Source: Acidobacteriota bacterium (lineage in GTDB: Bacteria > Acidobacteriota > UBA6911). From it: DNA of 64,000 bases. Where the stretch lies: contig JAISUT010000047.1 of the NCBI GenBank assembly GCA_031271905.1, forward strand, positions 26,350 to 90,349, read 5' to 3'. The position numbers and the translations under genes are program-made. A model generated the notes under the pieces. The model was given only the letters and a program-made list of their open reading frames with translations, was not told the origin of the DNA and searched no databases. Positions 10,276 to 61,301 of the stretch are shown here, piece after piece (the stretch's first letter is position 1; each line of letters starts with the position of its first letter).

Positions 10276-10338
10276 TGGGAGCCTCCAAAAACCTCGCAGA
10301 CAAGGCGTCGCCGCAGGTCGAAAAGGCGCGGCACCGCT
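10276..10338 (+). repeat. copy A of the interspersed element (left half only)
   Basis: GGGAGCCTCCAAAAACCTCGCAGACAAGGCGTCGCCGCAGGTCGAAAAGGCGCGG..., located between hrb and the SYLF gene. Confidence 0.75.
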
Positions 10339-11126
10339 TACGGAAGGGCGGCGGGCGGCGGCTCCGGCGCGGCTTTGGGCTTCGGCGGGCTGATCTTGTT
10401 CAACTGCTCCAGGAATATCCCCACGTCCTTCGCGGCGTCGGGGGAAGGCTCGGGGACGGGGGACGCCTCCGCCCCGGCGCCATCCCCGTCGTCCCCGTCG
10501 CCATCCGCCGCCCCTTGCAGCAGGAGCGTGCGGGCGTCCACCGGCCGCTGGTACAGCCACATGTTGGCGTCCTTGTCCTGGCGGACAGTCCCCCCTTTGA
10601 CGACCAAGCCCCCGAACAGGCCGCGGGCGCGGGAATAGGCGAGGATTTCCGCCGACATCCAGAGGTCGGTCTCCGCCGCCGCCGTCCGTCCGACCGGACC
10701 CGCAGCGACCGAGGCGTCGCCGCCCAAGGTGAACTTGCTGTCGAGCAGGCTTTCGATCCCGCGCAGGTTCATGACCATCAGGATGAGATCGACCGACTGC
10801 GCTCCGATCTGGAACCCGAAGCTGCCCCCCTCGAGCCGGAACATGGACGGGTTGCTCCACGCGCCCGCGCCACCCTCCGTCCGGCAGGACATGAGCCCCT
10901 TGCCGTAGTTGGCTCCGAAGATGAACCCGCCCTTTTTCATCCCGGGGATGACCGCGACGCAGGCGCACCTGTCCAGCAACTCCTGCGGGATCCCGCCGTC
11001 CGGCGCGTCCGCGATCTCTTTGAGCACCACGGCGCCGCGCACGACGCGATCCTCGACGTCTCCCGCCGTCGCCAAGGCGGCGGCGCACAGGCACGACAAG
11101 ACTACTACCGGCAGGATTTTTCTCAT
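10338..11126 (-). CDS. exported SYLF (Ysc84/DUF500) lipid-binding domain protein with a Pro/Ala-rich C-terminal tail
   Basis: Signal peptide MRKILPVVVLSCLCAAALA. The core (...VIPGMKKGGFIFGANYGKG...GGSFGFQIGAQ...) is typical of the SYLF domain. Confidence 0.55.
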   Translation of the reverse strand: MRKILPVVVLSCLCAAALATAGDVEDRVVRGAVVLKEIADAPDGGIPQELLDRCACVAVIPGMKKGGFIFGANYGKGLMSCRTEGGAGAWSNPSMFRLEGGSFGFQIGAQSVDLILMVMNLRGIESLLDSKFTLGGDASVAAGPVGRTAAAETDLWMSAEILAYSRARGLFGGLVVKGGTVRQDKDANMWLYQRPVDARTLLLQGAADGDGDDGDGAGAEASPVPEPSPDAAKDVGIFLEQLNKISPPKPKAAPEPPPAALP

Positions 11127-11156
11127 GGACGCCTCAGATGCCTCAAGATGCCTGAA

Positions 11157-11197
11157 AACAAGGCGGGGCGGGCGGCGCACCGCCCGTCCGCCTTGGT
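11157..11197 (-). terminator. GC-rich hairpin terminator after the radical SAM gene
   Basis: AAGGCGGGGCGGGCGG-cgca-CCGCCCGTCCGCCTT flanked by T-runs on both strands. Confidence 0.45.
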
Positions 11198-11200
11198 GTT

Positions 11201-12283
11201 TTACGCGGCCTTCGACTTGAAAGAGAAGAACTCGGCGACGTTCTCGGTCAGCAGTTGGGTGTAGGACTTGTCCAGGTAGGAGCGGATGGAGACGTAGCAC
11301 TGGTCGCAGGTGTTCCTCTCGGTGAACTCCTTGACCATCTTCTCCTGCTCGTGGAGGCCGTAGCGCTTGAACTGCATCGAGCAGGGCTGGAGCGCGCCGT
11401 CGCTCGTGACGACCAGCCAGCGCAGGCCCGCCTTGCAGTTGGGCGTGCCGCCGCGGTGGAAATACTCCCGCGTCGCGTCCAGGGTGGTGTTGTTGGTGGT
11501 GATCCAATGGGAGCTGTTCATCCGCTCCTTGAGCCGGGCGAGCTCCCTGTCCAGCAGCTCCAACTGCTCCCGCCTGTCCGGGAAATACTCGCGCGCCACG
11601 CCCCGACGGGGCACGTCGCCCCACCGGCGCACCAGCGTCTCGGGCGTCTCGTGGAAATCCGCGCGGCAGGCGGTGCGCCACGGCGAGTAGGCGCTGAAGT
11701 TGATGTTGACCCCCCATTCCTCCGCCTTGCTGGCGTTGGCGTTGATGTCGCCGATGTTCCAGGCGGTGATGCAGTTGTTCATGACGATGTCGTCGAAGCC
11801 CAGCTTCGCCGCCGCCGGAATCACCTTGCCTAGATGGTCGAAGTGCCCCGGCAGGCCCCGGAAGTCGTCATGGCGCTGCGCGTCGGGGAAGTCCAAGCTG
11901 ACGCAGAATTCGTCCACGCCCACGTCCCGCAACCTCTTATACCGGTCCACGGTCATCTCCGACCAGTTGGAGACCAGGATCAGGTAGGGGAGCCCGGACG
12001 AGGACTTGATGTTTTTCACGACGTCTTCCAAGTCGTCGCGCAACAGGGGTTCGCCGCCGGAGACCTGCACGACGACGGGTCGCAACACTTCCATGTACCT
12101 TTTGTAGTCCGCAGGCTTCATGTCTTTCGACATGTCGCGGGGGCCGCCGTGGTCGCAATGCCTGCAATAGCAGGTGCAGGAGTCGGTGACTTCGAAAGAC
12201 ACGACGATCGGCCGCCCGGCCCGCCAATTCATGGAGCCTTGGGCGATGATCCGCAAGGATTCCCCAAAGGGGACTTTACGCAT
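11201..12283 (-). CDS. radical SAM enzyme with a SPASM/twitch-like C-terminal Cys cluster
   Basis: CxxxCxxC in DSCTCYCRHC, the GGEPLL SAM-binding motif, and C-terminal Cys clusters (CKAG...CSMQ, CDQCY). GGAGG RBS 8 nt before the ATG at 12283. Confidence 0.7.
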   Translation of the reverse strand: MRKVPFGESLRIIAQGSMNWRAGRPIVVSFEVTDSCTCYCRHCDHGGPRDMSKDMKPADYKRYMEVLRPVVVQVSGGEPLLRDDLEDVVKNIKSSSGLPYLILVSNWSEMTVDRYKRLRDVGVDEFCVSLDFPDAQRHDDFRGLPGHFDHLGKVIPAAAKLGFDDIVMNNCITAWNIGDINANASKAEEWGVNINFSAYSPWRTACRADFHETPETLVRRWGDVPRRGVAREYFPDRREQLELLDRELARLKERMNSSHWITTNNTTLDATREYFHRGGTPNCKAGLRWLVVTSDGALQPCSMQFKRYGLHEQEKMVKEFTERNTCDQCYVSIRSYLDKSYTQLLTENVAEFFSFKSKAA

Positions 12284-12457
12284 GATAATTACCTCCACAA
12301 AGGTTCGCTGCGCAAAAAGAACCGTAAATCGTAGCAGATGGCGTTTTGATAAAGCAAGTTTCAGTTTCCAGAGGGAGGCAGAGGGGTTTCCCGGAGTTTT
12401 CCCGGAGGGGGCGGCGCCGCCCCTGGACCGCCCCTGCGCCGCCTTGCCGTGGCGGGC

Positions 12458-20626: not shown

Positions 20627-20870
20627 CCGAAAGTGGTTTTAGCCGCGTGCGGAGAGGGTCCGGCGCGGCGGCCTCCGCCGCGCGCCACAGTCGGCGTGGC
20701 GGAGGAGCAAGGGACGCCGGGACGGAGGGAGTCCGCCCCGGCGCGCCGGCACGGCTTGCTTGCCATGCCGGCGCGGAAACGAAGCAGTGAGGCAGACAAC
20801 TCCGAAGCGGCGGCCACTTGGGGAGGGGCGTCGCGGGGAAACGACAATTGAACGAAAGGAACCTGAGAAC

Positions 20871-21890
20871 ATGAAATCTCTGAAAAGCGTTTTGAAAGAC
20901 AGCGTGATTATGGGCCAGAAGGGGTTCACCCTCCTCGAACTCCTAGTGGTCGTCGCCATCCTGGCGGCCATCGCCGGCACCGCGGCCATCGCCTTGCAGG
21001 ACACCGACGCGCGCGCGTCCGCAGCGGCGCACGTCGCCATGATGGACGAGCTCAACAAGGGCGTGGCGACCTACCGCGTCCTGCACAAGAACGTCTACCC
21101 CGACAACTTCGACTCGTTGGCGTATGTGAATGACGCCAGCACCGATACTGCGGTAAATGGCGTGCTGTTACCACAAGAGGATGACGCCTCCGCTGGTGCC
21201 AATGGCGACATCCTTGGTTTTTCTGTAGATGACATTGCGCTGGGCACACTGATTGCTGGCGCTGAAGATTCTTTAGCGGATATCGGCATCACCAAGTTGC
21301 GCTATGTCAATGCCGCTTTTGACAACACCGATCTTCCCGAACTTACTCCGACTGAGAATTGCGACCCTGCTGGTGGCGCACTTCAGAAAGTCATCTCCAG
21401 CCGACGGAACAATATTGTCGCTGGGAATATCTTCAACGGTCCCGCCGCCAATGGGTGCGGTGCAAGTTTGGATATTGTTGCCGGTGCACAGGTTGCGTAT
21501 TGGGTCGGATCACTTGAACGTGTACTTGGCCCCGGTGAATATGGCGATGCCGCATTTTCTGGAACGGCCATGGCCTCAAATTCCAGTGTCCCGGCTGGTG
21601 TCACTGCACCTATTCTTATGGCGGTTGGTTTCGGTCCTGCCTCCGACCTGTTCAAGCCTGAGATCCTGGGCAGCATGACTTCCGTTCCCGTGTACCGTCA
21701 TGTCCGCGAAGACCAGTACAATCGTTTCATTGGGCTCTTCCGTGTCGGTGAAGCAACGACTACGGGGTCGGATGTTTGGGCGGCACCCACCACGACCGAG
21801 CAGGTGCTGTTCGTCGGCGTGGTCGATGGCGCCGGCGACACCAAGGAGGAAGAGCTGGGCGAATGGGACGGCACCCGCAGCACCATCTAA
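20871..21890 (+). CDS. prepilin-type N-terminal cleavage/methylation domain protein (pilin-like, 339 aa) with an unusually long 18-aa leader
   Basis: MKSLKSVLKDSVIMGQKG|FTLLELLVVVAILAAIAG: class III signal with the G/FTLLE motif. AAAGGAAC RBS. A strong terminator follows the gene. Confidence 0.75.
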   Translation: MKSLKSVLKDSVIMGQKGFTLLELLVVVAILAAIAGTAAIALQDTDARASAAAHVAMMDELNKGVATYRVLHKNVYPDNFDSLAYVNDASTDTAVNGVLLPQEDDASAGANGDILGFSVDDIALGTLIAGAEDSLADIGITKLRYVNAAFDNTDLPELTPTENCDPAGGALQKVISSRRNNIVAGNIFNGPAANGCGASLDIVAGAQVAYWVGSLERVLGPGEYGDAAFSGTAMASNSSVPAGVTAPILMAVGFGPASDLFKPEILGSMTSVPVYRHVREDQYNRFIGLFRVGEATTTGSDVWAAPTTTEQVLFVGVVDGAGDTKEEELGEWDGTRSTI

Positions 21891-21916
21891 CCCACCATCG
21901 ACGCAACCTCCAACAC

Positions 21917-21985
21917 GGGGCGGCTATGGCCTAGCCGCCCCGCCCCACCGCGCGGCCGGCTCCCATCGCCGGCCGCGCCTTTTTC
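21917..21985 (+). terminator. tandem hairpin intrinsic terminator downstream of the pilin gene
   Basis: Hairpin GGGGCGGCTA-tggcc-TAGCCGCCCC, then GCGCGGCCGGC-tcccatc-GCCGGCCGCGC followed by CTTTTT. Confidence 0.7.
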
Positions 21986-22102
21986 ACAAGTCCGCAACGC
22001 CGGCCCCGCCCCTTCGTCCATCCGCGTTTTGGGAAGCAGCCGCAATCAAAGACGATGAGTTGGAATGGACGGAGGACGCCGTGACAGCCAAGGATGAACT
22101 GT

Positions 22103-23029
22103 TTACGGGACGGCGGTCGATGGCGGCGTCGCAGTCCACGACGCACACACACTGCTATGCAACCGCAACGCCTCCCTCATCTTCCCCGCCAGCCTCTCGG
22201 AAACCTCGGACGGATGCGAAACCATCAGCATGTGGTCGTTGAAATCAAACACGACCAATTCCTTATGCGGCGCGCGCAGGCGTTCGAACACCAAGCGGGT
22301 ATAGTCGGCGGTGAACAACTTGTCGCCGCTGTCGGCGACGACGTAGACCGGGCACCGGACGCTGCCGTCCGTCAGTCCGGGGAACTCCGTGGTGAACAGG
22401 CTGCCCAAGAAATGCAGGGGGTAGCGGGTCAGGCACAGCGGGTCGCCGCCCACCTTGTCCCATATCTCCCGCGACGTGCTGATACGTTCGCGTTTCATAT
22501 AAAAATCCAGCGGCAGCGCCAAATCCGGCAATATCCGGGCGCAGAACTTGAACACGCCCCGCGTCGGACGGTATAGATGGCGCAACCACCTTGGGAAGCG
22601 CGACACATAGATCGACTGCGGGAGCTCCGTCAGGAGGAGGTTGTGGGGGAACGCCGCCGCCAGACGCCCGTCCTCCGCAGCCAGCACCGCCGCCACGACG
22701 CCGCCTTGGCTGGAGCCGAACGCGATCACGGGCAGTCCGAACCGCTCCAGCGCGAACGTGACCGCGTCGCGCCCGTTCCCCACAATATCGCGTATCGTGT
22801 AGCGCTTGACCTCGCGCGGGCTTTTGCCGTGCCCCACCGGATGCAGTCCGACGACGGCGAAGCCGCGTTCCGCGAAGCCGTGGAGCAACGCCTCGTAAAA
22901 CAGGGGGTGGACCATCGTCGCCGGGACGAACATGATCGCCGCCTCCGGCGCCGCCGACGCCCAGACCGACAGGACGACACGGGCGCCGCCCGATGTTATT
23001 TCGTGCTCCGTGTAAGAAACAGCCATGCC
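22103..23029 (-). CDS. alpha/beta-hydrolase fold esterase/lipase
   Basis: 308 aa. Nucleophile elbow GSSQGG, upstream HG oxyanion region, and a C-terminal D...H pair. Confidence 0.75.
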   Translation of the reverse strand, partial: GMAVSYTEHEITSGGARVVLSVWASAAPEAAIMFVPATMVHPLFYEALLHGFAERGFAVVGLHPVGHGKSPREVKRYTIRDIVGNGRDAVTFALERFGLPVIAFGSSQGGVVAAVLAAEDGRLAAAFPHNLLLTELPQSIYVSRFPRWLRHLYRPTRGVFKFCARILPDLALPLDFYMKRERISTSREIWDKVGGDPLCLTRYPLHFLGSLFTTEFPGLTDGSVRCPVYVVADSGDKLFTADYTRLVFERLRAPHKELVVFDFNDHMLMVSHPSEVSERLAGKMREALRLHSSVCASWTATPPSTAVP

Positions 23030-23237
23030 CCCCTCGCACCGTCGGTCGGCGACCTGCGGACTTCGACCAGTTCCGCGCATCGTTGCAACATCCTGGCGGG
23101 GAACCGCCGCGTCCGGGCGACGAGATCGAATAACCCGCCCGCGCGGCGGCGGCGAACGCCGCTTCCAAAAGCCGGCATCCCCCCGCAGTTACATTTCCAG
23201 CGAAAAGCCGGAGTATACCGGGAACGGGCCGCGACAT

Positions 23238-23253
23238 TGTGACCGAGGTCACA
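23238..23253. promoter_or_regulatory. CRP/FNR-type palindrome TGTGACCGAGGTCACA in the esterase/pilus-cluster intergenic region
   Basis: Perfect 16-bp palindrome. Confidence 0.45.
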
Positions 23254-23471
23254 ACCGCAAAAACAACCGGCTCGCCATCGGACGCCGCCATGCGGGATCG
23301 TGCGGCGCATATCGCTTCGCGGGGATGGGAGGGCTTTCGCCGACGCCGCGCCCTGCCGGGTTCGCACTCTGACAGACGCCCGGGCGGCAACGGATCCGAC
23401 GCATCCAAGGCTCACGCCTGCGCATGGTGGAACCCGGCGGGGCGCCCCCGGTGGAAATAATTTTCCCGAAC

Positions 23472-23487
23472 TGTGACCTCAGTCACA
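23472..23487. promoter_or_regulatory. CRP/FNR-type site TGTGACCTCAGTCACA, 135 bp upstream of the first plus-strand pilus-cluster gene
   Basis: TGTGA-N6-TCACA, with GGAAATAATTTTC upstream and TAGGCTAAATATT downstream. Confidence 0.5.
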
Positions 23488-23622
23488 TCGGACGCGCGGG
23501 GACGGGATAAAATGCCACCTTAAATTCGGAGAGACGAATTTGATTAGCATAGGCTAAATATTCGCCCGCCGCATGGGGCGGCGGCGGACAGAGGCCGCAA
23601 AGGACGGACTTCGGGGGCGACG

Positions 23623-23925
23623 ATGGACAGGAAGACGATGCTGGGGGGGCTGTTTTTCGGAATGCTGTTGTTCACCGGATGCGGGGAGTCGCCGGACGTC
23701 CCGGCGATGAAGGAGGGGTTGGTGAGATCGGGGATGCCCGAGGACGAGGCGGACTGCTTCGCGGAGAAGCTGGGCGACACGGTGGCTGGCGAAGCCTACA
23801 ACTACATGTCCGCCCTCATGGGCGAAGGGGTGGACGAGAAAGACGCCATCACCAAGGCTCGCCGGAAATACGGCGCCGAATTCCGCTCGGGCGTGACCGA
23901 GGCGCGCAAGGCATGCGCGGAATAG
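23623..23925 (+). CDS. small lipoprotein of unknown function
   Basis: Signal peptide plus lipobox (LLFTGC); 100 aa. First gene of the plus-strand pilus/T2SS cluster, after the CRP-type sites. Confidence 0.4.
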   Translation: MDRKTMLGGLFFGMLLFTGCGESPDVPAMKEGLVRSGMPEDEADCFAEKLGDTVAGEAYNYMSALMGEGVDEKDAITKARRKYGAEFRSGVTEARKACAE

Positions 23926-23961
23926 CCTCCTGGCGCAGGCGTCAGACAAGGAGGATGCCCC

Positions 23962-24774
23962 ATGCCCAAAGCACGGCGTTTTAAAACCCGGGAGCCGGGA
24001 ACCGGAACCGATTCCGGCTTCTCCCTGTTGGAGCTGCTGGTGGTCGCATCCATCCTGGTGGCGACCTCCGTCATCGCCGCCGCGACGTTCGGGGGCATCC
24101 GCCGCCACACCGACGGGCGGCTGGCGCATGCGGAGATGCAGGAGATCGCCGCCGCCATCCGGCGTTTCAAACAGGACACCGGTTATTATCCCAAGACAGG
24201 GCCGTTCGATTTGGAGACAAATGGCGGGAACGTGCCCTTGGCGGCGCTCCCCTCCTATGCCGGGACGACCGATGCGGAGAAAGAAGCGTGGTTTTACTCG
24301 CCAGCGAACTTCTGGCAGCTCATCACCACCCAAAGCCCCCTCATAGACCCCGGGTCGGAGGAGGGGGGGCATCCGCTGGCGAAGTGGGCTCCGGCGACAG
24401 GACGGGGTTGGCGCGGCCCGTATCTCAGCGGCCACAGAGACGGGTATCTGACCATCGGCGCGGGCGTCAACAGCTCCGCCCCGTCCCCGGCGCAGGGGGA
24501 GCGGACCGGCGATCCCGGCGCAGGCGACAAGATTCACGACGTCGCCGGCATCGCCGACCCGTTTGAACACAGCGGCGTCGGCGGTTTTCTGGAATGGAGC
24601 AGCCGGGAATGGGGCGGCCGGGGAGAGGGCGCAGCCCCCCCCGCATCGCATCCGGTGTGGGGACGGCCCTACCTCGTCTTTGGCTGGGACGCCGCCCACC
24701 CCACGCTCGTCAGCATGGGCCCGAACGGAGATTACGAGTACGGAGACGGAGACGACATTGAATTGGAGATTTGA
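23962..24774 (+). CDS. prepilin-type N-terminal cleavage/methylation domain protein (pseudopilin-like, 270 aa) with a long leader
   Basis: MPKARRFKTREPGTGTDSG|FSLLELLVVASILV... Confidence 0.7.
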   Translation: MPKARRFKTREPGTGTDSGFSLLELLVVASILVATSVIAAATFGGIRRHTDGRLAHAEMQEIAAAIRRFKQDTGYYPKTGPFDLETNGGNVPLAALPSYAGTTDAEKEAWFYSPANFWQLITTQSPLIDPGSEEGGHPLAKWAPATGRGWRGPYLSGHRDGYLTIGAGVNSSAPSPAQGERTGDPGAGDKIHDVAGIADPFEHSGVGGFLEWSSREWGGRGEGAAPPASHPVWGRPYLVFGWDAAHPTLVSMGPNGDYEYGDGDDIELEI

Positions 24775-24781
24775 CAGGCGC

Positions 24782-25360
24782 ATGAAGATCATCACGGGGG
24801 TGCTCGCGGCGCTCGCGGTCTGCGCGGCATCGTCACCGCCGCCCCTCAAGTCGCAGACGGGGGCGGGGGCGCGGGAGGAACCGTCGGGTGCGAAAGCGCC
24901 GGGCTCGGCGAAGCATGCCGAGCCGTTTTTCAAGGACATCGACCTCGACCGGTTCATCGAAAAAGAAAAGGCGACGGTCGCGCATGCGGGCAAGAAGTTG
25001 ATCGCCCGCGACGCGCCCATCCGCTTCGAGGCGACGATGAAACGCATCCCGGAAAAAAAGAAGATGGCGTACATCTACACGGCGATGAGCGCCGCAGGGG
25101 TGTCACCCCTGCCGGAAGTCGAACACCGGATGTTCATCGAGACCAAGGGGCGGCGGATCATCTCGGTGTATGTGGAGAAAGGGGTTGCGGCACGAATACC
25201 GGGCGGTTTGAAGGAAGGCGCGGCGGCTCAGTTCTTCGGCTACCACGTCTACAGCTATGACAAGGGTCCGGCGATCATGGTCGTGGATTTCTCCCCCGCC
25301 TCGGCCACGTCGAAGCCGAAAGCGGCGACGGGGGGGGCGACGAAGAAGAAACGCAAGTAG
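24782..25360 (+). CDS. exported protein of unknown function within the pilus/T2SS cluster
   Basis: Signal peptide MKIITGVLAALAVCAASS; 192 aa with a Lys-rich C-terminus. Confidence 0.45.
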   Translation: MKIITGVLAALAVCAASSPPPLKSQTGAGAREEPSGAKAPGSAKHAEPFFKDIDLDRFIEKEKATVAHAGKKLIARDAPIRFEATMKRIPEKKKMAYIYTAMSAAGVSPLPEVEHRMFIETKGRRIISVYVEKGVAARIPGGLKEGAAAQFFGYHVYSYDKGPAIMVVDFSPASATSKPKAATGGATKKKRK

Positions 25361-25371
25361 GGCGGGGGCAC

Positions 25372-26544
25372 ATGCGCATACAAGGTTATCGGGGCATCGG
25401 GGACTGCGAACCGGGGACCGACGACGGCTTCACGCTGCTGGAGCTGTTGGTGGCGGTGGTGTTGTTGTCCGCCATGGCGTGGATGACGCTCGGCCTGGTC
25501 GCCGACGACGTCAACCAGGCGCGCTACGAGGACACGCGCAACCGCCTCCGCGCCATCCGCGCAGCCGTGCTGGGCTCGCCCGCGCTCATGGAGAACGGAC
25601 TCGTCGGCGGTTTCGTCGCCGACAACGGCAGGCTGCCTTCGAGCATCGCCGAGCTGTCGGGCGTCGCGGAGGCCTTGGAGCCTTTCGGCCCCAAGGCCCC
25701 CGTATTCGATCCGACCCCCGACGCCAAGGGCTTCGACAACGGCGACGAACCAGGCGAAGAAGAAGCGGACAAGGTGGTCGAATTGGGCGGCGCGCGGCAA
25801 CTGCTGATGAAGGGGCATCGCGGCTTCTACCTGGACGGCGGCGCATACCGCGACGGCTGGGGCAACCGGTCCAGCTTCATTTCACCCGGCGTGTCGTGCC
25901 CGAGCCCGCCGGGCGTGGCATTCTCGGATGATGACGGCCATGAGAGCGACGACGGCGATGACAACTACGGGTGGTGCGTGACGCGCAAGAAAACCGACGA
26001 CGACGGCTACACGGAGCTTTACGTCGCCAGCTACGGCATGGACGGCGTCGAAGGCACGACGACCTGCGAAGAGGGCGACGCCACGCCGGTATGCGCCTAT
26101 GAGGAAGACGCCCAGATGTCGCCGCCGATCCTGGAAGCCGACTGGCGGACGCCCGTCCCAAGCATCGAAGTCTCGGTCGTCAGCCGCGGGGGGGGCGGCA
26201 TCCCTTCGAGCGACACCCCCTGGGGCGTCGCCCTGCTCGTCTATGTCAGCGACGCCGGCGACGACGATTCGAAACCGCCGCCCGGGCGGTGGCGGCAGTG
26301 GTTCTCCGACACCGCATCGACCGCAGCCCACTGCGCAGACGGCAGGTGCGATTTCGATTTTGTCTTCGCCGGCGGCGAGACGTCCCCGATTCCGCAAATC
26401 CCCATGGGGGAGCACCTGCTGGCGCTGTTCGAGGTCGATGGCGCCGCCAAGGCGTTGGTCAAGGACGGGGACGAATACGTCACGGCGCGGGTGAAGTTCT
26501 TCCCGCGCGGCGGCGTGCCGACGGCGAGGTTGGCGATACAGTAG
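25372..26544 (+). CDS. prepilin-type N-terminal cleavage/methylation domain protein (large pseudopilin-like, 390 aa) with a long leader
   Basis: MRIQGYRGIGDCEPGTDDG|FTLLELLVAVVLLSAMAW... Confidence 0.7.
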   Translation: MRIQGYRGIGDCEPGTDDGFTLLELLVAVVLLSAMAWMTLGLVADDVNQARYEDTRNRLRAIRAAVLGSPALMENGLVGGFVADNGRLPSSIAELSGVAEALEPFGPKAPVFDPTPDAKGFDNGDEPGEEEADKVVELGGARQLLMKGHRGFYLDGGAYRDGWGNRSSFISPGVSCPSPPGVAFSDDDGHESDDGDDNYGWCVTRKKTDDDGYTELYVASYGMDGVEGTTTCEEGDATPVCAYEEDAQMSPPILEADWRTPVPSIEVSVVSRGGGGIPSSDTPWGVALLVYVSDAGDDDSKPPPGRWRQWFSDTASTAAHCADGRCDFDFVFAGGETSPIPQIPMGEHLLALFEVDGAAKALVKDGDEYVTARVKFFPRGGVPTARLAIQ

Positions 26545-26562
26545 GATGGATTCCCCGAGCCC

Positions 26563-49431: not shown

Positions 49432-49554
49432 GGCACCTGCAAAAACCCGGACGCCGCGTCTCGGCCCTTGCCCGGAAACGCCCGCCCTACCTTGGCAAAC
49501 TCCGCTTCCCGGGCGGCGGCGACGCCGTGTCTGCGGGTTTTTGGGAGGCGCCCC
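49432..49554 (-). repeat. copy E of the interspersed element (reverse orientation), overlapping the 3' end of rimP
   Basis: The reverse complement reads GGGGCGCCTCCCAAAAACCCGCAGACACGGCGTCGCCGC...GGCGTCCGGGTTTTTGCAGGTGCC. Confidence 0.8.
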
Positions 49555-50065: not shown

Positions 50066-50079
50066 CGCCGTCCCCCCAT

Positions 50080-52179: not shown

Positions 52180-55100
52180 TCACACCCGCTCCATGTTGTC
52201 CAAGAAAAGCAACAGGCGGTTGGCTATGTTGACTTGGCTCGTCCCGCCGTCGTAGTCCAGCGACAGCAGGTTCAGGCGGGGGTAGAGCGCCTTGATCTTC
52301 TTCTCCACCCCTTTGGCGACGATGTGGTTCGAGATGCAGCCGAAGGGTTGGAGGCAGATCACGTTGTTGACGCCGTTCCTGGCGAACGAGACCGTCTCGG
52401 CGGGAAGCAGCCAGCCTTCGCCGAACTGCGCCGCCAGGCTGACGACCTCGGCGGCGCCGTCCGCCTCCTCGAAGATGTCGGGGAACGGGGTGAAATAACG
52501 GAAGCCGCGCCCCGCCGCGTTCGCCCGCGCGATCTGCCGCCGCGCCCAATAGTAGGTCTTGGCGAGGAGGAAGTCCGCCCAAGACGCGCGCTGGAGCCCG
52601 AGGTCGGCGTTGACCCGGAGGTTGACGAACGCCTGCATGAAGAAGGGGAGCAGGCCGGGGGGGGAGACCTCCACCCCCCGCTCCATCAGCCACTGCGCCG
52701 CCGAGCGGTTCGCATAGGAGTTCAGCTTCAGGAATATCTCTCCGACCAGGCCCGCCTTGGGCAGGACGGCGTCCACCACGGCGTCGTCGTAGTCGCGCGC
52801 CGCCTGGGCGAGCAGGCGCATCAAGCCGGAGCGGTCGGCACGGGCGACCAGCGGCCCCGCCAAGGCGAGGTGCTTGTCGGTCAACGCCTGCACCGCGCCC
52901 GGCGCCTTCTCGCGTACGACGGCGGCGTGGTGGAACTTGGATATGCCGTCGGCGAACAGTATCGCCGAGAAAGCCGTGGGCAGGACGCGCCGCCAACTGA
53001 TCCCCAGCCCCTCCGCCTTCTCCACGAAGCCCATCCCCAGCACGGGCACGTCGGCGAAGCCCGCCTCCGCCAAGGCGCCGCGGATGAGGGCGATGTAGTT
53101 CGAGGCGCGGCACTGGCCGCCGGTCTGGCTGATGAGGACGGCGGTCGCGTCCGGGTCGCGCCCCCCTTCCTGCAAGGCGCGCACGATGTCGCCCACCACC
53201 AGCGTCGCCGGATAGCAGACCTCGTTGTTCGCGTAACGCAGGCCGATCTCGGCGGTCTCATCCGTGCTGCGGGGGAGCACCTCCACGTCGAAGCCCGCCA
53301 GCCGCCCCAGCGCAGGCAGCAGCGGCGCGATGAACTCGCTCATGAACGGCACCAGCAACGTGCGCCGCCGGTCTTCACGCCGGAAGAACCTGGTCGGGGG
53401 GAACGGCTTCGCCTTGCGGGGGTTGCCGTCCCGGTAGCGGCGGCTCTCCACCAGCGAGCGCACCCGCAGCTTCAGGGCGCCGGCGCTGGACATGTCGTCG
53501 ATCTTCAGGAGCGTCGGCGCCTTGCCCCGCCGTTTCAACAGGGCGTCCACCTCCTCCTGCAGGAAGGCGTCCGGCCCGCAGCCGAAGGAGGTCAGCTCGG
53601 CGAACTGCACATCGTCGTTTTTGCGCGCCACCCACTCCGCCGCACGGAGGATGCGGTTCACGTACGCCCACTGCCGCACCAGGCGCCCGTCCTCGACGTC
53701 GTAGCCCTCGGCGGCGTCATCCCCGCGGACGATGTCGTCGGTCAACACATCGACGCCGAGCGCCGCGATCATGGAGGACGCCTTGTGTTGGATGAGCGGG
53801 TCGGCGTGGTAGGGGCGCCCCGCCAAGAGCACGGCCGGCCGCCCCGCCTCGCGCGACCTGCGGAATGCCTCCAGGTTCAGCCACCGCACCTTGTCGGCGA
53901 ACTCCGCTTGAGCCCGCTCCGCCTTTTCCAGCGCGGCGGCGGCGAGGGCGTCGCCCACCCCCAGGGAGCGCAGGTAGCGGCGGCAGGCGACCGACAGCAG
54001 CTTCCCGTCCTGGAACGTGACGGCGGGGGAGTCGATGGGGACGTCTGCGGCGGTCACGCTCTTCACCACGTCGCTGTAGCCGGAGACGACGGGGCAGTTC
54101 CAACTGTTGACCTCTCCCGCGCCCTCCCGCCTCTCGTGCGCCACCCAGGGCATGAAGATGCGGTCCACCCCCCGCTCGACCAGGTTGCGGACGTGCCCGT
54201 GGACCAGCTTGGCGGGGAAGCAGAGGTTGTCGGACATGACGCAGCGAGCCCCCGACTCGTAGAGCCCGAACGTGGAGGCGTCGGAAAGCACGACCTCGAA
54301 GCCGCAGGCGCCGAACAGGGCGTGCCAGAAGGGGAACTCCTCGTACATGTTCAACACGCGCGGAACCCCTATCCTGAGCCGAGGCGCCGTCGGGCGGGCG
54401 GCGGCCGCCCCCGCGTCGCGCGCCTGCGCGGCGGGGGCGGCTGCGCGGTCGAACAGCAGGCTGTACTTCTCCGCATAGACGTCGGCGCCGGGGGTCTCGG
54501 CGCCGCCCCGGTTGTGGAACACCTTCTCGCACTTGTTGCCGGAGACGTAGGCGCCGCCGCCGGCGAAGGCGTACCGCGTGACCGCGCAACGGTTTTCGCA
54601 CCCCTGGCAACGGAAGGTCGAGCATGCGGGCGCGGGGACGCCCGCCAGGGCGGAGAGGGCGCGGGGGGCGCGCGCGACCCGCTCGGCGGCGGCCTGCGAC
54701 CGCGCGTAGAGCGCCGCGCCGTAAGCCCCCGCCAACTCGGGGCGGTCGGGGCGGTGGACGGGGCGGCCGGTCAGGCGCTCGAACGCCGCCACGACGGCGT
54801 CGTTGCGCATCGCGCCGCCCTGGACGACGATCTCGTCGCCCAGCTCCTCCACCTGGCGCAGCTTGAGGACCTTGTAGAGGCAGTTCTTGGCGACGGAGTA
54901 GGCGAGCCCCGCCGCGATGTCCCCCACCCCCGCCCCCTCGCGCAACGCCTGCTTGACCTTCGAGTTCATGAACACCGTGCAGCGGGTGCCGAGGTCGGCG
55001 GGCGCCTGCGCCGTCGCGGCGAGCGCCGAGAATTCCGCCGCCGTGCGCCCGAGCGAGCGGGCGAAGGTCTCGATGAACGAGCCGCACCCGGAGGAGCAGG

Positions 55101-56457
55101 CCTCGTTGATCTCCATGCGCACCAGCGCCCCTCGGGAGACGAAGATCGCCTTCATGTCCTGCCCGCCGATGTCCAGTATGAACGACACGCCGGGGGCGAG
55201 CCGCCGCGCCGCCAGGTAGTGCGCCACCGTCTCGATCAGCCCGTACTCCAGGCCGAACGCCGCCTTGACCAGCTCCTCGCCGTAGCCGGTGGCGGCCGCC
55301 GCCGCGACGACGAGCCCGGGACGGGCGCGCCCCAGCTCCGCCAAGGCGCCCCGGACGACATCGAGCGGGCTCCCCTCGTTGGAGGCGTAGCGGGAGAAGA
55401 CGATCTCGCCGTCGGCGTTGGTCGCGACGACCTTGGTGGTCGTCGAGCCGGAGTCGATGCCCAGGTAGACCCCGCCCGCCGGCGCCTGCGCAGCGTCGCA
55501 CGGCGGCGCGACCGGCAACGCGTCCCCGCCCTTGCCCCGCTTCCACTCCTCGTACGCGCCGGCGTCCGCGAAGATCGGCGGCAGCGCGGCGGACTCCCTC
55601 TCCGCGGCGCGCCCCTCCAGCATCCGCAAGAGGTCGCGGGGGGAGAGCCCACGGGAGTCGCCCGGGGCGGACGCCGCCGACAAAGCCGCCCCCCAGGCGG
55701 GCACCAGGTGGGCGTGCTCCGTGACGACGAACTCCTCCGGCGGGAGCCGTAACGCCGTGGCGAAAGCCCGCCGCAGCGCCGGCAGGAAGGTCAACGGGCC
55801 TCCGCAGAGGAACACCTTGGGCGCGACCTCGCACCCGCGCGACAGGGCGGTCAGCGTCTGCAGGGCGACGGCCTGGAAGACGCTGGCGGCGATCTCCTCG
55901 CGCGGCACGTTGGCGCTGATCAGGTTTTGCACGTCGGTCTTGGAGAAGACGCCGCAACGCGAGGCGATGGGATGCACGGCGCGGGCGTCGAGCGCCAAGT
56001 CGTTCATCCCCGCCAGGTCGACGCCGAGCAGGATCGCCATCTGGTCGAGGAAGGCACCGGTGCCCCCCGCGCAGGCGCCGTTCATGCGCAGGTCGGCGCC
56101 GCCGTCCTGCTTGAGGTAGATGACCTTGGCGTCCTCGCCGCCGATGTCGATGAGCGTGGCGATGCCGGGATGCCGCCGCCGGACGAACGCCAGCGCCGCC
56201 GCGACCTCCTGCACGAAGGGGAGTGCCAGGCGCTGGGACGTCCCCATGCCGACCGAGCCGGTCACGGCCAGGCGGACGGGGGCGTCCCCGACCGCCTGCG
56301 CCACGTCGCCGAGCACGTCGCGCAAGACGGCGCCGACGTCGGCGTTGTGCCGGAGGTAGCGGGAAAAGGACAGCGTCCCGCCGGGACGGTCGTCGCCGAC
56401 TTCGACCATGACCGCCTTCAGAGTCGTGGAACCGATATCCAATCCGATGCTTTTCAT
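52180..56457 (-). CDS. giant CoA-substrate-specific enzyme activase: two tandem BadF/BadG/BcrA/BcrD (HgdC-like) ATPase modules, each followed by a DUF2229/HgdB-like dehydratase-like domain
   Basis: Two actin-fold ATPase N-termini (IGLDIGSTTLKAV...; YLGIDSGSTTTKVV...). Cys-rich inserts (CSTFRCQGCENRCAV), and large HgdB-like domains. Length 1426 aa from MKSIGLDIGS. Confidence 0.85.
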   Translation of the reverse strand: MKSIGLDIGSTTLKAVMVEVGDDRPGGTLSFSRYLRHNADVGAVLRDVLGDVAQAVGDAPVRLAVTGSVGMGTSQRLALPFVQEVAAALAFVRRRHPGIATLIDIGGEDAKVIYLKQDGGADLRMNGACAGGTGAFLDQMAILLGVDLAGMNDLALDARAVHPIASRCGVFSKTDVQNLISANVPREEIAASVFQAVALQTLTALSRGCEVAPKVFLCGGPLTFLPALRRAFATALRLPPEEFVVTEHAHLVPAWGAALSAASAPGDSRGLSPRDLLRMLEGRAAERESAALPPIFADAGAYEEWKRGKGGDALPVAPPCDAAQAPAGGVYLGIDSGSTTTKVVATNADGEIVFSRYASNEGSPLDVVRGALAELGRARPGLVVAAAAATGYGEELVKAAFGLEYGLIETVAHYLAARRLAPGVSFILDIGGQDMKAIFVSRGALVRMEINEACSSGCGSFIETFARSLGRTAAEFSALAATAQAPADLGTRCTVFMNSKVKQALREGAGVGDIAAGLAYSVAKNCLYKVLKLRQVEELGDEIVVQGGAMRNDAVVAAFERLTGRPVHRPDRPELAGAYGAALYARSQAAAERVARAPRALSALAGVPAPACSTFRCQGCENRCAVTRYAFAGGGAYVSGNKCEKVFHNRGGAETPGADVYAEKYSLLFDRAAAPAAQARDAGAAAARPTAPRLRIGVPRVLNMYEEFPFWHALFGACGFEVVLSDASTFGLYESGARCVMSDNLCFPAKLVHGHVRNLVERGVDRIFMPWVAHERREGAGEVNSWNCPVVSGYSDVVKSVTAADVPIDSPAVTFQDGKLLSVACRRYLRSLGVGDALAAAALEKAERAQAEFADKVRWLNLEAFRRSREAGRPAVLLAGRPYHADPLIQHKASSMIAALGVDVLTDDIVRGDDAAEGYDVEDGRLVRQWAYVNRILRAAEWVARKNDDVQFAELTSFGCGPDAFLQEEVDALLKRRGKAPTLLKIDDMSSAGALKLRVRSLVESRRYRDGNPRKAKPFPPTRFFRREDRRRTLLVPFMSEFIAPLLPALGRLAGFDVEVLPRSTDETAEIGLRYANNEVCYPATLVVGDIVRALQEGGRDPDATAVLISQTGGQCRASNYIALIRGALAEAGFADVPVLGMGFVEKAEGLGISWRRVLPTAFSAILFADGISKFHHAAVVREKAPGAVQALTDKHLALAGPLVARADRSGLMRLLAQAARDYDDAVVDAVLPKAGLVGEIFLKLNSYANRSAAQWLMERGVEVSPPGLLPFFMQAFVNLRVNADLGLQRASWADFLLAKTYYWARRQIARANAAGRGFRYFTPFPDIFEEADGAAEVVSLAAQFGEGWLLPAETVSFARNGVNNVICLQPFGCISNHIVAKGVEKKIKALYPRLNLLSLDYDGGTSQVNIANRLLLFLDNMERV

Positions 56458-56742
56458 AACCGCGCGTTCACGTCCGATGGTGCGTCCGGCGTCGCACCAG
56501 ACACCACTACCGTCAGCCTGCACCCGCAAGCTCCCCTAGGCCCGCCGCCGACGGGCGCCATCCCGGATGCCGTCGAGTCTCTCACGGCGCTCCAACACAC
56601 GTCAATTAAAATATTTGAAAGGTGAAAATTCAAGTTTCAACCATGCGGGCAACCATGCGGGGAACTCCTTGGCGGCGTGTTTTCCCACTGTTGCAAAAGG
56701 GCGCTTCGATGTTAATATCATCCCGTCTTTCGTCCAAGTCCT

Positions 56743-56850
56743 GGGAGCCTCTAAAAACCTCGCAGACGCAGGTCGAAAAGTGGAGTTTACAAAGGCGAAT
56801 GGGCATTTTCGACCAAGGCGCGACGCAGCGTCCGGGGTTTTCATAGGTTC
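56743..56850 (+). repeat. copy F of the interspersed element
   Basis: GGGAGCCTCTAAAAACCTCGCAGACGCAGGTCGAAAAGTGGAGTTTACAAAGGCGAATGGGCATTTTCGACCAAGGCGCGACGCAGCGTCCGGGGTTTTCATAGGTTC. Confidence 0.85.
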
Positions 56851-56896
56851 TTTTCTTTCAAATCGCAACTATCCGACATCAGAGGGGGGACATACC

Positions 56897-59583: not shown

Positions 59584-59586
59584 GCC

Positions 59587-60006
59587 CTACCCCCTGCCGC
59601 GCCGGACGCCCGCGAACGCCCGCCACCCCTGCATGGCGGAGGCGAGCATGAGCAGCGAGCCCAGCACCGCCAGCGCCGGCAGCGTCAGCAGACGGCAGGG
59701 CATATGCGCCCCTTGGCAGACGCCGACCAGGGCGGTGGGCACCAGCAACGCCAGCGCCGCGTCGAGGAAGACGGCGACGTGCAATCCCGGCGCGCAGGAC
59801 TCCGCCCCGCCCCGGGCGCAGAGGATCAACGCCACGCCGAGCAGCGCCAGCACCCCGCCGACGCCAGCCTCGACCAAGGCGGTCCAGTGACAGGGCATCG
59901 ACGGGTCGTCCAGCCCCTCGCAGACCGGGAAGAGCGTGCGCGGCCCGACGGCGACCAGGATCCCCACGAGCACCGCCGGAAGACCCGCGACCAATCTCCG
60001 AACCAT
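59587..60006 (-). CDS. small Cys-containing membrane protein (DUF4418-like), a common companion of FtsX-type ABC exporters
   Basis: 139 aa, four TM helices, conserved Cys residues (PVCEG, PCHW, CARGG, CAPG, CQGAHMPC). Confidence 0.45.
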   Translation of the reverse strand: MVRRLVAGLPAVLVGILVAVGPRTLFPVCEGLDDPSMPCHWTALVEAGVGGVLALLGVALILCARGGAESCAPGLHVAVFLDAALALLVPTALVGVCQGAHMPCRLLTLPALAVLGSLLMLASAMQGWRAFAGVRRGRG

Positions 60007-60065
60007 ATCGCCACCCCCCTTGCGGCGGCCAAGTCGCCGCGCCCCAAGGCGCGCCGCACCCGGCT

Positions 60066-61217
60066 TTAGAAGCTGTACTTCGCACCCAGGTGGATGCGAT
60101 GGTTGACCTGATCCTGCGACGGGAGGGCGTAGTCGGTGCGCATATAGGAGTATTCGACGCCGATCTGCGCCTTGTCCGTCAGGTTATAGAAGAAGTTGGC
60201 GAAAAACCGGTCGTTGAACGTCCGCGCGTTCCCGGAGAGCTCGGCGTCGTCCGGGTCGTCGATGCCATACCCTACCCCCAGTTGGAACTGTCGGGACGGG
60301 ATGTATACGAGCTGCCCCCAACCGCCGGCGCTCTTGATCTCCGTGCCGATGGCGACGTTGACCCCCTGGCCGACACCCCCGAGGTAGTTGTCGAGGTTTT
60401 CACCCGTCCAGGCGACCCCTTGCAGGGTGAGCTTGTCATGGAGCGGCAACTGCACGCCGCCGTGCAGGAGCCAGCTCTGGTAGGTGCCGGGATTCGCGGA
60501 ACCGCGCACCTTCTCGCGGCCATACGCGCCGGAGACGGTGAAGGTGCTCTGCTTGGCGCCGATGAGCTTGGCCTTCACCGCGAGGCTGCCGTGGAAGCTC
60601 GGCGAGGCGGCGGCGTTCTCGTCCGGCTGGGCGTCGCCGTCGTAGTTGGCGCCGTTGCGCCCGTGCTGCACCGCGAGCTTCACGGTCACGGTGGCGTCCC
60701 CGCCCACCTTGGAGTCCTTGGTCAGGCGTATCTGCGGATGCCGGCCGTAGAGGTGCCCCGCGTTCCCCAGGATGCCCGCGTCCACCATCGAGGGGTGGAA
60801 GCTGCTGTAGGTGTCCCAGTCCTGACCGAAACGGAGCGACCAGCCCTCGCCCCACGCCACGTCCAGATAGGCGAGGCGCAGGCGGGGCGAATACTTGTTC
60901 GCGGTGCTCGCCTCCTCGAACAAGTCCCCCTCGATCTTGCCCGTGACCTTCACCTTCCCGCTTTCGTGCCCGGTGATGTTCAGCCCGAGGCGGGTGTCGC
61001 GCGCGCTGAAGGTCAGCTCCTCCTCGCCGCCGCCCACGGTGGTTTTCGGCAACGCCCAGAAGGACAGGTCGCCATACGCCGTGCGCGCCGTGTCATACAC
61101 CGAGTCCAGCTTGACGTAGCCGTAGGGCGTGATCTTCACGCTGGAAGCCTGTTGCGCGAAAAGCGTCGTGCCGCCGAGCGCGGCGAACAAAAACAAAAGT
61201 TGCATCTTCCGAATCAT
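60066..61217 (-). CDS. outer-membrane beta-barrel porin-like protein
   Basis: Signal peptide (MIRKMQLLFLFAALGGTTLFA), alternating amphipathic beta-strands, and a C-terminal aromatic residue (…GAKYSF). Confidence 0.6.
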   Translation of the reverse strand: MIRKMQLLFLFAALGGTTLFAQQASSVKITPYGYVKLDSVYDTARTAYGDLSFWALPKTTVGGGEEELTFSARDTRLGLNITGHESGKVKVTGKIEGDLFEEASTANKYSPRLRLAYLDVAWGEGWSLRFGQDWDTYSSFHPSMVDAGILGNAGHLYGRHPQIRLTKDSKVGGDATVTVKLAVQHGRNGANYDGDAQPDENAAASPSFHGSLAVKAKLIGAKQSTFTVSGAYGREKVRGSANPGTYQSWLLHGGVQLPLHDKLTLQGVAWTGENLDNYLGGVGQGVNVAIGTEIKSAGGWGQLVYIPSRQFQLGVGYGIDDPDDAELSGNARTFNDRFFANFFYNLTDKAQIGVEYSYMRTDYALPSQDQVNHRIHLGAKYSF

Positions 61218-61238
61218 CGCGTTTCCTTTCGTTCGTCA

Positions 61239-61301
61239 GGGAACCTCTAAAAACCCCGGGTGCCGCGTTGCGCCTTGCCTGCGAGGTTTTTAGAGGTTCC
61301 C
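61239..61301 (-). repeat. copy G of the interspersed element: a 63-bp internally deleted (core) form in reverse orientation
   Basis: GGGAACCTCTAAAAACC-CCGGGTGCCGCGTTGCGCCTTG-CCTGCGAGG-TTTTTAGAGGTTCCC. A perfect 17-bp terminal inverted repeat. Confidence 0.85.

Follow-up and report, generated by a model that had tools for sequence, protein, structure and literature searches.

Seven short repeats dispersed over the window, by which we mean the whole stretch of 64,000 nucleotides that was analysed, are very probably non-autonomous MITEs of IS5-family (IS5-group) descent, as judged from their termini and target-site duplications. The seven-copy repeat family proposed in the preliminary description proved to be real: the 17-mer GGGAACCTCTAAAAACC, searched with up to two mismatches, matched seven times in the window against 0.00 expected from 100 shuffles, and an nhmmer search with a profile of the four full copies recovered exactly the seven reported loci and no further ones. 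The same families were also recovered by repeat finding in the window (D1, D3, I1, I4 and I6). All seven positions stand, with slightly refined extents; the start previously placed at about 41900 is not homologous, and this copy begins at 41921 (Table 1). Four full-length copies of 108–123 bp are accompanied by a right half, a copy shortened both internally and at one end, and a 63-bp deletion derivative, in agreement with the variable truncation described before, and the copies, with overall lengths of 63–123 bp, have no transposase-sized coding capacity. Pairwise identity among the copies is 75–88%. The terminal inverted repeats are 17–20 bp long, and the shared termini hold as a family-wide 17-bp repeat but not as an invariant pair, as both ends are perfect in the mini copy 61239-61301 only, while the other copies have 1–5 terminal mismatches or lack one end. 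In this mini copy, two CAAGGCG direct repeats that are present in the full element mark the limits of a deletion that removed the interior. Moreover, Logan contigs from an independent assembly of the same organism break inside the copies 56743-56852 and 61239-61301, which is expected of a multi-copy repeat.

Table 1. Positions of the repeat copies and of the unambiguous target-site duplication in the window.
Feature	Position	Strand	Remarks
Degenerate copy	10277-10338	+	left terminal repeat GGGAGCCTCCAAAAACC, 49-nt left arm, right-arm remnant; right terminus lost
Full copy, 120 bp	28421-28540	+	start uncertain by 1 nt (G run)
Target duplication ATAA, left	40518-40521	+	includes TAA stop of rubrerythrin gene
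Full copy, 121 bp, best preserved	40522-40642	+	right terminus perfect, left with 3 mismatches
Target duplication ATAA, right	40643-40646	+	
Right-half copy	41921-42022	+	terminus GGGTTTTGGAGGTTCCC; left half missing or replaced
Full copy, 123 bp, most diverged	49432-49554	-	inside rimP 3' end
Full copy, 11-bp internal deletion	56743-56852	+	
Mini copy, 63 bp	61239-61301	-	perfect 20-bp terminal repeats flanking a short loop

The same terminus is carried by elements in other bacteria. A 1286-bp full-length IS of Acidovorax (L051) has both GGGAACCTCTAAAAACC ends exact and encodes a 367-aa protein with DDE_Tnp_1 (3.8e-27) and DUF772 (1.8e-21) domains, and homologous transposases lie beside the same terminus in L004, L102 (Thiothrix) and L058 (Leptospira). 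Near-identical ends were found in an element of pWW0 recorded as "IS5 family transposase" (GGGCACCTCGAAAAACC), which we take to be IS1246, and in ISAzo41, annotated as IS5 family (GGGCGCCTCGAAAAACC). A Diaphorobacter IS, also annotated as IS5 family, ends in GGGAACCTCTCAAAACC and is flanked by a TCAC/TCAC duplication, and the ends of IS5-family-annotated plasmid elements are 1–3 mismatches away from GGGAACCTCTAAAAACC. The autonomous IS5-group elements (the pWW0 element, ISAzo41 and those of Acidovorax, Diaphorobacter, Thiothrix and Leptospira) have ends of the form GGG(A/C)(A/G)CCTC(T/G)AAAAACC, with 17-bp termini identical to or 1–3 nt off those of the window; they are 1.0–1.3 kb long, encode a transposase of about 340–370 aa, and have only the termini in common with the window elements. 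Autonomous elements with such ends are likely the class that mobilises the repeats. In addition, GGGAACCTCTAAAAACC bounds many unrelated, transposase-less elements of 90–230 bp across several phyla, including Firmicutes, Spirochaetes, Bacteroidota, Proteobacteria, Planctomycetes and others. The interior of the window elements had no match in JGI metagenome contigs, searched with two patterns, or in plasmids, and no cognate IS5-type element was found in the window plus about 2 kb. As had been noted before, the window contains no transposase: tblastn with an IS5 transposase gave nothing, and Pfam scans of 50 window ORFs found no transposase, integrase or Y1 transposase domain.

IS5-group elements are characterized by a 4-bp target duplication and by ends starting with GG or GA (ISfinder), in line with the data on MITEPsy1 (PMC3189936). 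In the window, an unambiguous 4-bp duplication (ATAA/ATAA) is present at only one of the four complete copies, 40522-40642, while at copy 28421-28540 a G run leaves the reading of a possible AAGG duplication ambiguous. Inspection of the flanks showed the duplication to be absent or decayed at the complete copies 49432-49554 and 56743-56852, and the flanks of the mini copy, despite its perfect ends, carry no target duplication. Among 60 related elements elsewhere that have both ends, 31 show an exact, AT-rich duplication of 4 bp, and none shows a longer one. IS5-type termini (exact in the Acidovorax element), a 4-bp duplication and ends beginning with GG or GA are thus all found, and the IS5-family assignment rests on common termini and duplication length rather than on a demonstrated transposase–end interaction.

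Within the rimP-nusA-infB operon, copy 49432-49554 is inserted in the final codons of rimP and points along the direction of transcription; the rimP reading frame now extends 22 codons into it, and downstream of it the ancestral end of rimP (GGGTTCTGA) and the start of nusA can still be recognised. In the relative L121 (NusA 74% identical), the rimP-nusA gap is 3 bp and contains no element, which represents an empty site, the comparison being of one site in one distant relative rather than in a sister strain. The copies had all been described as intergenic, which fails for this copy and also for copy 28421-28540, since the upstream ORF 26563-28431 stops on a TAA within the left terminal repeat of the element; this copy is flanked by two ORFs that run in the same direction and belong to a type II secretion / pilus-like cluster. 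In rimP and ORF 26563-28431, the copies therefore supply new C-terminal codons or a stop codon. Copy 10277-10338 abuts the stop codon of a convergent Ysc84-domain gene (10338-11717, minus strand), and copy 40522-40642 is located between a rubrerythrin gene (39979-40521) and efp (EF-P start at about 40792). The end of copy 41921-42022 overlaps the TAG stop of a minus-strand gene (42022-42537), and this copy is also the point where gene order ceases to match L121. Copy 56743-56852 separates divergently oriented genes and ends 45 bp before the point at which a DUF937 gene probably starts (56897), and copy 61239-61301 precedes an outer-membrane-protein-like gene on the minus strand (60066-61217). 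A/T-only 4-mers are about threefold denser in non-coding sequence (33 per kb vs. 10.7 per kb). The elements are short, non-coding, dispersed in multiple copies and equipped with terminal inverted repeats, a target duplication and an empty site, as is general for MITEs, and the suggestion that they are non-autonomous mobile elements rather than genes is borne out by the IS5-type termini elsewhere, the 4-bp duplications and the empty rimP-nusA junction of the relative.

The potential to fold into a long hairpin was confirmed, with full copies reaching -40 to -69 kcal/mol (z-scores of -2.0 to -4.6, and -6.7 for the mini copy). Copies born as MITEs might now be kept as sense-oriented RNA hairpins that govern transcript processing or stability, or that act as attenuators or weak terminators, for instance in the rimP-nusA and rubrerythrin-efp gaps, but we consider this decidedly unlikely. 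Such a role was described as possible for MITEs in a 2024 review (PMC10969869), and long hairpins are present in all full copies; both strands, however, fold about equally, as expected for a DNA palindrome, and nothing therefore indicates RNA-specific selection. The copies between co-directional genes (28421, 40522, 49432 and 61239) are all oriented alike relative to transcription, but four of four gives a two-sided p of only 0.125. Similarly, 5 of the 42 consensus pairs hold through two-sided changes, mostly in the diverged copy 49432, but with four sequences these compensatory changes represent in effect a single independent contrast. The right arm has only a weak 5-bp stem followed by GGGGTTTTT, which might favor a terminator, but no T run was seen after the full hairpin, and terminator-like sites in the region (3 vs. 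1.8 +/- 1.6 in shuffled sequence) are not above expectation. The Rfam search proposed in the preliminary description was run against Rfam 15 and returned nothing at gathering thresholds for the whole window and nothing at E<=1 for copy 40522-40642. The copies are, moreover, decaying via truncations and deletions. None of these observations clearly supports a terminator or RNA-stability role for the elements. The RNA-hairpin reading would in any case add to a MITE origin and not replace it. A wider proposal, in which GGGAACCTCTAAAAACC is the mark of one pan-bacterial IS5-group MITE superfamily with a near-invariant end in many phyla, and in which sense-oriented copies in operons (rimP-nusA, rubrerythrin-efp, secretion/pilus cluster) have been exapted as RNA hairpins tuning processing, stability or read-through, seems unlikely as well.

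The copies are palindromic, mostly extragenic and found in both orientations with no transposase in the window, which could reflect REP/BIME-type palindromes spread by a RAYT (Y1, IS200/IS605-like) transposase rather than a DDE transposase. REP units, however, are 20–40 bp, and elements of about 120 bp exceed this size; their terminal inverted repeats are well delimited and identical to IS5-type ends, the 4-bp duplications at copy 40522 and in 31 of the 60 related elements are lacking in REPs, no REP-doublet arrangement of copies is seen, and a Y1 transposase domain occurs in none of the 50 ORFs scanned. Such an origin is highly improbable, and the identical IS5-type termini, the 4-bp duplications and the empty rimP-nusA junction instead argue for an IS5-family MITE. 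Tn3-derived TIMEs have ends of about 38 bp starting with GGGG and a 5-bp duplication, and IS630-derived MITEs have a TA duplication. Descent from either is scarcely conceivable here, for although the termini begin with GGG, loosely as in Tn3, and the target is A+T-rich, the common terminus is about 17–20 bp and not 38 bp, the exact duplication in those 31 related elements is 4 bp, never 5 bp and not TA, and the full-length elements with these ends (1.0–1.3 kb) encode DDE_Tnp_1/DUF772 IS5-type transposases and not Tn3 TnpA or IS630 ones.

As an IS5-family MITE, the window element has its closest described relative in MITEPsy1/ISPsy2 of Pseudomonas syringae. MITEPsy1 of P. syringae pv. phaseolicola is 100 nt long, carries terminal repeats of the form G(G/T)A..TCTGAAAAAGCC and duplicates 4 nt at its target, CTAG or YTAA. 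It was trapped in sacB, and its presumed parent is the IS5-family ISPsy2 (Bardaji et al. 2011, PMC3189936). Both are transposase-less elements of comparable length, and the 18-nt repeats of MITEPsy1 (GGAAGGTCTGAAAAAGCC / GTATCCTCTGAAAAAGCC) are of the same motif type as GGGAACCTCTAAAAACC, as is seen beside the window terminus variants ...CCTCTGAAAACC and ...CCCCTGAAAAGC. A new avrPphE allele arose through a MITEPsy1 copy inserted at the 3' end of that gene (PMC3189936), which parallels the insertion at the rimP 3' end. The interiors, however, show no relatedness, and several terminal positions differ, with one or two extra G. In addition, MITEPsy1 copies are near-identical and their movement was shown experimentally in a gammaproteobacterial host, whereas the window copies, from an Acidobacteria-like host, are diverged, partly truncated and only putatively mobile. 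BrickBuilt, MITE464, MITE293 and MITE700 of P. gingivalis and ATR / ISNme1 of Neisseria are likewise short and non-coding with IS5-family-matching repeats, but these repeats are different (GAGACCTTTGCA...), belong to other IS5 subgroups and go with duplications of 2–9 bp (PMC4596501). REP/BIME, ERIC and Correia elements are also small repeats that form hairpins, lie dispersed at gene ends and are often co-transcribed (PMC10969869), but REPs are RAYT-dependent and without the terminal-repeat and duplication architecture, Correia elements duplicate TA, and their sequences are unrelated to those of the window.

A DDE transposase, now or once encoded elsewhere in the genome, would bind the terminal repeats of about 17 bp (GGGAACCTCTAAAAACC) and excise or copy the element, which would then be inserted at a staggered, usually A+T-rich 4-bp target that becomes duplicated. 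In this genome of 67% G+C, A+T-rich targets would be concentrated at stop codons and in intergenic stretches, while insertions within genes would be purged, and copies would therefore accumulate at gene ends. Both the mobilisation by an IS5-type transposase in the host and this reason for the gene-end positions are what we infer. Judged by the identity of 75–88% between copies, the family is old; it decays by point mutation, by truncation and by loss of internal sequence between short direct repeats, and most copies are probably no longer mobile. For the host, the consequence would be predicted co-transcribed palindromes. The family is an ordinary kind of bacterial mobile DNA and no new kind of system.

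For annotation, the finding explains seven conserved non-coding blocks and two altered gene ends, namely the C-terminus of rimP and the stop codon of ORF 26563-28431, as well as the short-read assembly breaks of the source organism at the copies. It also contributes a MITE family that is G+C-rich, lineage-specific and from a phylum that has been little studied. Moreover, one IS5-group terminus is common, base for base, to autonomous elements and many unrelated MITE families in distant phyla, which makes the 17-mer GGGAACCTCTAAAAACC a convenient probe for such elements.

The 17-bp terminus GGGAACCTCTAAAAACC has seven matches with at most two mismatches in the 64-kb window, compared with none expected from 100 dinucleotide-preserving shuffles, and an nhmmer search with a profile of the four full copies returned exactly the seven reported loci (E 3e-37 to 2e-07) and no eighth copy in the window. 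The repeat family described earlier from the sequence alone is, therefore, real. An independent repeat search of the window joined the same loci through two direct families (D1, D3) and three inverted pairs (I1, I4, I6), and a MAFFT alignment showed both the termini and the interior to be common to the copies, which are named here by start coordinate and share 75–88% pairwise identity in a window of 66.7% G+C. The mini copy 61239 has perfect 20-bp terminal repeats and no interior, its deletion being bounded exactly by two CAAGGCG direct repeats, one in the left and one in the right arm of the full element.

Coordinates of the MITE copies and of other features in the window and in other genomes
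Feature	Sequence	Coordinates	Strand	Remark
Degenerate copy	window	10277-10338	+	left arm and right-arm remnant; right terminus gone
Full copy	window	28421-28540	+	
Full copy	window	40522-40642	+	best preserved
Right-half copy only	window	41921-42022	+	
Full copy	window	49432-49554	-	most diverged
Full copy	window	56743-56852	+	11-bp deletion
Mini copy	window	61239-61301		63 bp
Long ORF, secretion/pilus-like cluster	window	20760-21890		no Pfam match or prepilin motif only
Long ORF, secretion/pilus-like cluster	window	23554-25074		no Pfam match or prepilin motif only
Long ORF, secretion/pilus-like cluster	window	25372-26544		no Pfam match or prepilin motif only
Long ORF, secretion/pilus-like cluster	window	26563-28431		no Pfam match or prepilin motif only
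Multi-hairpin element, spirochaete MAG	L009	6644-6760		
Multi-hairpin element, spirochaete MAG	L064	1003-1120		
Multi-hairpin element, spirochaete MAG	L016	6397-6520		
Multi-hairpin element, spirochaete MAG	L093	1338-1480		
Multi-hairpin element, spirochaete MAG	L103			
Multi-hairpin element, spirochaete MAG	L002			
134-bp MITE, Cd354_bin66	L095	2297-2430		
134-bp MITE, Cd354_bin66	L111	7050-7183		
134-bp MITE, Cd354_bin66	L116	602-735		
134-bp MITE, Cd354_bin66	L008			

In the related ENA contig L121, whose NusA and RimP are 74% and 73% identical to those of the window, rimP terminates in ...GGGTCCTGA, 3 bp before the nusA start. The window keeps the homologous ...GGGTTCTGAGCTATGCC, with the ancestral rimP stop and nusA start, now downstream of the 123-bp copy 49432, which splits the final few rimP codons; the RimP reading frame extends 22 codons into this copy, and the Pfam RimP C-terminal domain stops at residue 169 of 198. 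Compared with L121, the arrangement bears the signature of an insertion. A conserved regulatory region at rimP-nusA was rejected, since the ancestral stop and start persist beyond the element and the site is empty in L121. This empty site, the terminal repeats and the 4-bp duplication uphold the initial reading of a non-autonomous mobile element and not a gene.

As for target duplications, copy 40522 is flanked by ATAA/ATAA, the left ATAA containing the rubrerythrin stop codon, and copy 28421 possibly by AAGG/AAGG, where a G run leaves the boundary ambiguous. At copies 49432 and 56743, the flanks either lack a duplication or match at only 3 of 4 positions, and at the mini copy there is none. 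The sparse duplications fit the 12–25% divergence between copies and an old family with decayed flanks. Adjoining the mini copy, a short imperfect tandem repeat of the ATTCGTC type, ATTCGTCC ATTCCGTCC ATTCGTCA, occupies 61302-61326; as the opposite flank ends in TTCGTCA, the mini copy sits within this repeat, which may mimic or hide its target duplication.

Synteny was compared between 41921-42537 of the window and 8703-9990 of L121. The order nusA-infB-...-truB-YtxH-(~170-aa gene) is common to both, up to the stop of the gene at 42022-42537, and beyond that stop L121 has an OsmC gene, while the window has the half copy 41921 followed, on the other strand, by PilZ-like and efp genes. Gene order, thus, ceases to match at the half copy, so that a truncated copy marks a break in synteny, possibly the result of a rearrangement associated with the MITE.

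In species-representative genomes (596 Gb), a scan located the exact 17-mer at no fewer than 116 loci, none of those listed belonging to the source organism, against a chance expectation of ~70 matches by a uniform-composition estimate. Among the matches listed, nearly all have an A+T-rich tetranucleotide just before the terminus and many have an inverted terminus 90–230 bp further on, so these matches are not random. Of the 60 listed elements with both termini within 400 bp, 31 have a longest flank duplication of exactly 4 bp, and none has a longer one. The interiors of the listed elements belong to several unrelated families, and their hosts include Oscillospiraceae/Ruminococcus, Treponema, other spirochaetes, Prevotellaceae, Sulfurovum, Francisella, Thiothrix, Nitrospinota and a planctomycete. 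At least four loci (L051, L102, L004 and L058) hold full-length insertion sequences with this terminus. The Acidovorax element (L051) is 1286 bp long with the exact 17-mer at both ends, and its 367-aa product contains DDE_Tnp_1 (3.8e-27) and DUF772 (1.8e-21); the transposases of L102 and L004 (Thiothrix) are 53–56% identical and that of L058 (Leptospira noguchii) 38% identical. Searched against annotated plasmids, the L051 transposase matched genes for an "IS5 family transposase" and an "IS5-like element ISAzo41 family transposase". Moreover, the plasmid IS5 relatives pWW0 and ISAzo41 have the ends GGGCACCTCGAAAAACC and GGGCGCCTCGAAAAACC, respectively, and an insertion sequence of a Diaphorobacter plasmid has the ends GGGAACCTCTCAAAACC with a TCAC/TCAC duplication. 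By these ends, transposases and duplications, the terminus is that of an IS5-family clade duplicating 4 bp, and the window elements are very probably non-autonomous miniatures of this clade.

Other genomes display further arrangements of the terminus. In Treponema/Spirochaetaceae MAGs, it occurs in 37–44-bp mini-hairpins (terminus, 4–6-nt loop, terminus), each with a second conserved hairpin after it and, further on, a third that resembles the terminus (...CTCTAAAAACTGAAGTTTTTAGAG...); these composite elements are quite unlike the 120–230-bp MITEs of other phyla, and the 4-bp duplication is often absent. The Prevotellaceae MAG Cd354_bin66 has a 134-bp MITE family with both 17-mers perfect, whose flanks, for example AATA/TACA and TATA/TTTA, lack the 4-bp duplication, pointing either to a different target rule or to decayed flanks. 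A 174-bp MITE of a Deltaproteobacteria MAG (L060, 5216-5389) also has both 17-mers perfect, and its flanks TTAA/TAAA share a longest exact match of 3 bp (TAA); a further terminus-like GGGCACCTCTAATAACC just outside it suggests nested or tandem insertions.

Among known systems, MITEPsy1 of Pseudomonas syringae pv. phaseolicola is the closest documented relative of the window MITEs. It is 100 nt long with terminal repeats GGAAGGTCTGAAAAAGCC/GTATCCTCTGAAAAAGCC, targets CTAG or YTAA with a 4-nt duplication, is ascribed to the IS5-family ISPsy2 and has been caught experimentally in sacB, while a copy at the avrPphE 3' end produced a new allele; sequences like it might be widespread, according to its authors (PMC3189936). 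Porphyromonas gingivalis and Neisseria also have IS5-family MITEs, with terminal ends unlike those of the window family (PMC4596501). The exact terminal sequence, as text, was not found in the searchable literature. Every MITE-defining feature tested was found in the window elements, as was every tested feature of IS5-group derivatives, and the features of REP/BIME and of Tn3-derived TIMEs were not. Integron attC sites, CRISPR repeats and a coding motif were rejected because the copies are dispersed between housekeeping genes, not arrayed, have terminal repeats and a target duplication, and lie outside ORFs or at their very ends.

The window is an ordinary chromosomal region, in which Pfam scans of 50 likely genes found rimP-nusA-infB-truB, efp, rubrerythrin, metabolic genes and signalling proteins, as well as a type II secretion/type IV pilus-like cluster (T2SSE, T2SSF, secretin and prepilin-type N-terminal motifs). 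The preliminary description had seen no transposase gene in the window, and, in agreement, no transposase or integrase domain occurs among these 50 genes and tblastn of an IS5 transposase against the window gave no match. Acidobacteria MAGs supply the best named NusA homologues, and as the closest non-identical one reaches only 74% identity, the host is Acidobacteria-like, and the collection searched contains no near relative of it. For several long ORFs of the secretion/pilus-like cluster (20760-28431), Pfam gave no match or nothing beyond a prepilin N-methylation motif, and third-position G+C is lower around 20-25 kb than elsewhere in the window. In addition, 52180-56529 (-) is a single 1449-aa ORF with BcrAD_BadFG ATPase and DUF2229 domains (gene table of L117), an activator/dehydratase-like fusion.

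The copies are situated at gene ends. All had been called intergenic, which is not strictly so, as copy 49432 lies within the last rimP codons. The rubrerythrin TAA directly precedes copy 40522, with efp ~150 bp downstream of the copy; the ORF upstream of copy 28421 stops at a TAA inside the MITE's own terminal repeat; copy 41921 runs into the TAG of a convergent gene, and copy 10277 adjoins the stop codon of another. Copy 56743 lies between divergent genes, with the start of a DUF937 gene 45 bp downstream, and copy 61239 precedes by 22 bp a gene whose product resembles an outer-membrane protein. A/T-only tetranucleotides are three times as dense at non-coding or terminal-codon positions as inside genes (33.4 vs 10.7 per kb), and ~70% of such sites are still within genes. 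From these counts, the probability that target preference alone would keep all seven copies outside gene interiors is roughly 2e-4; purifying selection against intragenic insertions must, therefore, contribute, and we infer that it adds to the A/T target preference in gene-end placement.

Long imperfect hairpins, as had been proposed, are predicted for all full copies (-39.9 to -69.1 kcal/mol, z -2.0 to -4.6); the mini copy folds with z -6.7, and the fold of the half copy is not significant (z +0.46). Reverse strands fold about as well as forward strands, which indicates DNA-palindrome behaviour and gives no sign of selection specific to RNA. When the four full copies are folded as a consensus, 5 of 42 pairs are maintained despite changes on both sides, nearly all of them owing to the one diverged copy and, thus, a single contrast. 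All four copies between co-directional genes are in sense orientation, a suggestive bias that does not reach significance (two-sided p = 0.125). The surroundings of copies 40522 and 41921 yielded no σ70-like promoter, the sole terminator-like feature within an element consists of a 5-pair stem with GGGGTTTTT after it, and terminator-like sites in the region do not exceed shuffled expectation. The Rfam comparison suggested earlier matched no family at gathering or permissive thresholds. A putative terminator or RNA-stability role of the copies is speculative. The certain effects are structural, namely a palindrome transcribed as part of the rimP-nusA operon and, for two genes, new C-terminal codons or a new stop. 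Immediately downstream of copy 40522 (40682-40717), a G11 run (40685-40695) pairs with a C7 run, GCCGGGGGGGGGGGCGGCTCGCCGCTCCCCCCCGGC; this is probably the native post-rubrerythrin hairpin, now parted from its stop codon by the MITE, and the 11-nt G homopolymer upstream of efp is a potential slippage site.

In JGI metagenome contigs, the right-arm pattern had no match and the left-arm pattern 24, none of them a true copy; a profile search matched only contigs L122 and L136, weakly, and the terminal repeat was absent from both on inspection. Nothing similar to copy 40522 was found in plasmids by blastn. The organism's only other sequences, Logan contigs from run SRR14710912, match the window at 100% identity, and two of the contig ends lie within copies 56743 and 61239, as expected of an assembler meeting a multi-copy repeat; their extensions (~1.5 kb to the right and 0.3 kb to the left of the window) contained no new copies. 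By extrapolation only, seven copies per 64 kb would scale to hundreds per genome. The window elements very probably represent a decaying, lineage-specific IS5-group MITE family in an Acidobacteria-like chromosome. As a mildly notable by-product, one 17-bp IS5-group terminus is, base for base, common to autonomous elements and many unrelated MITE families in distant phyla.
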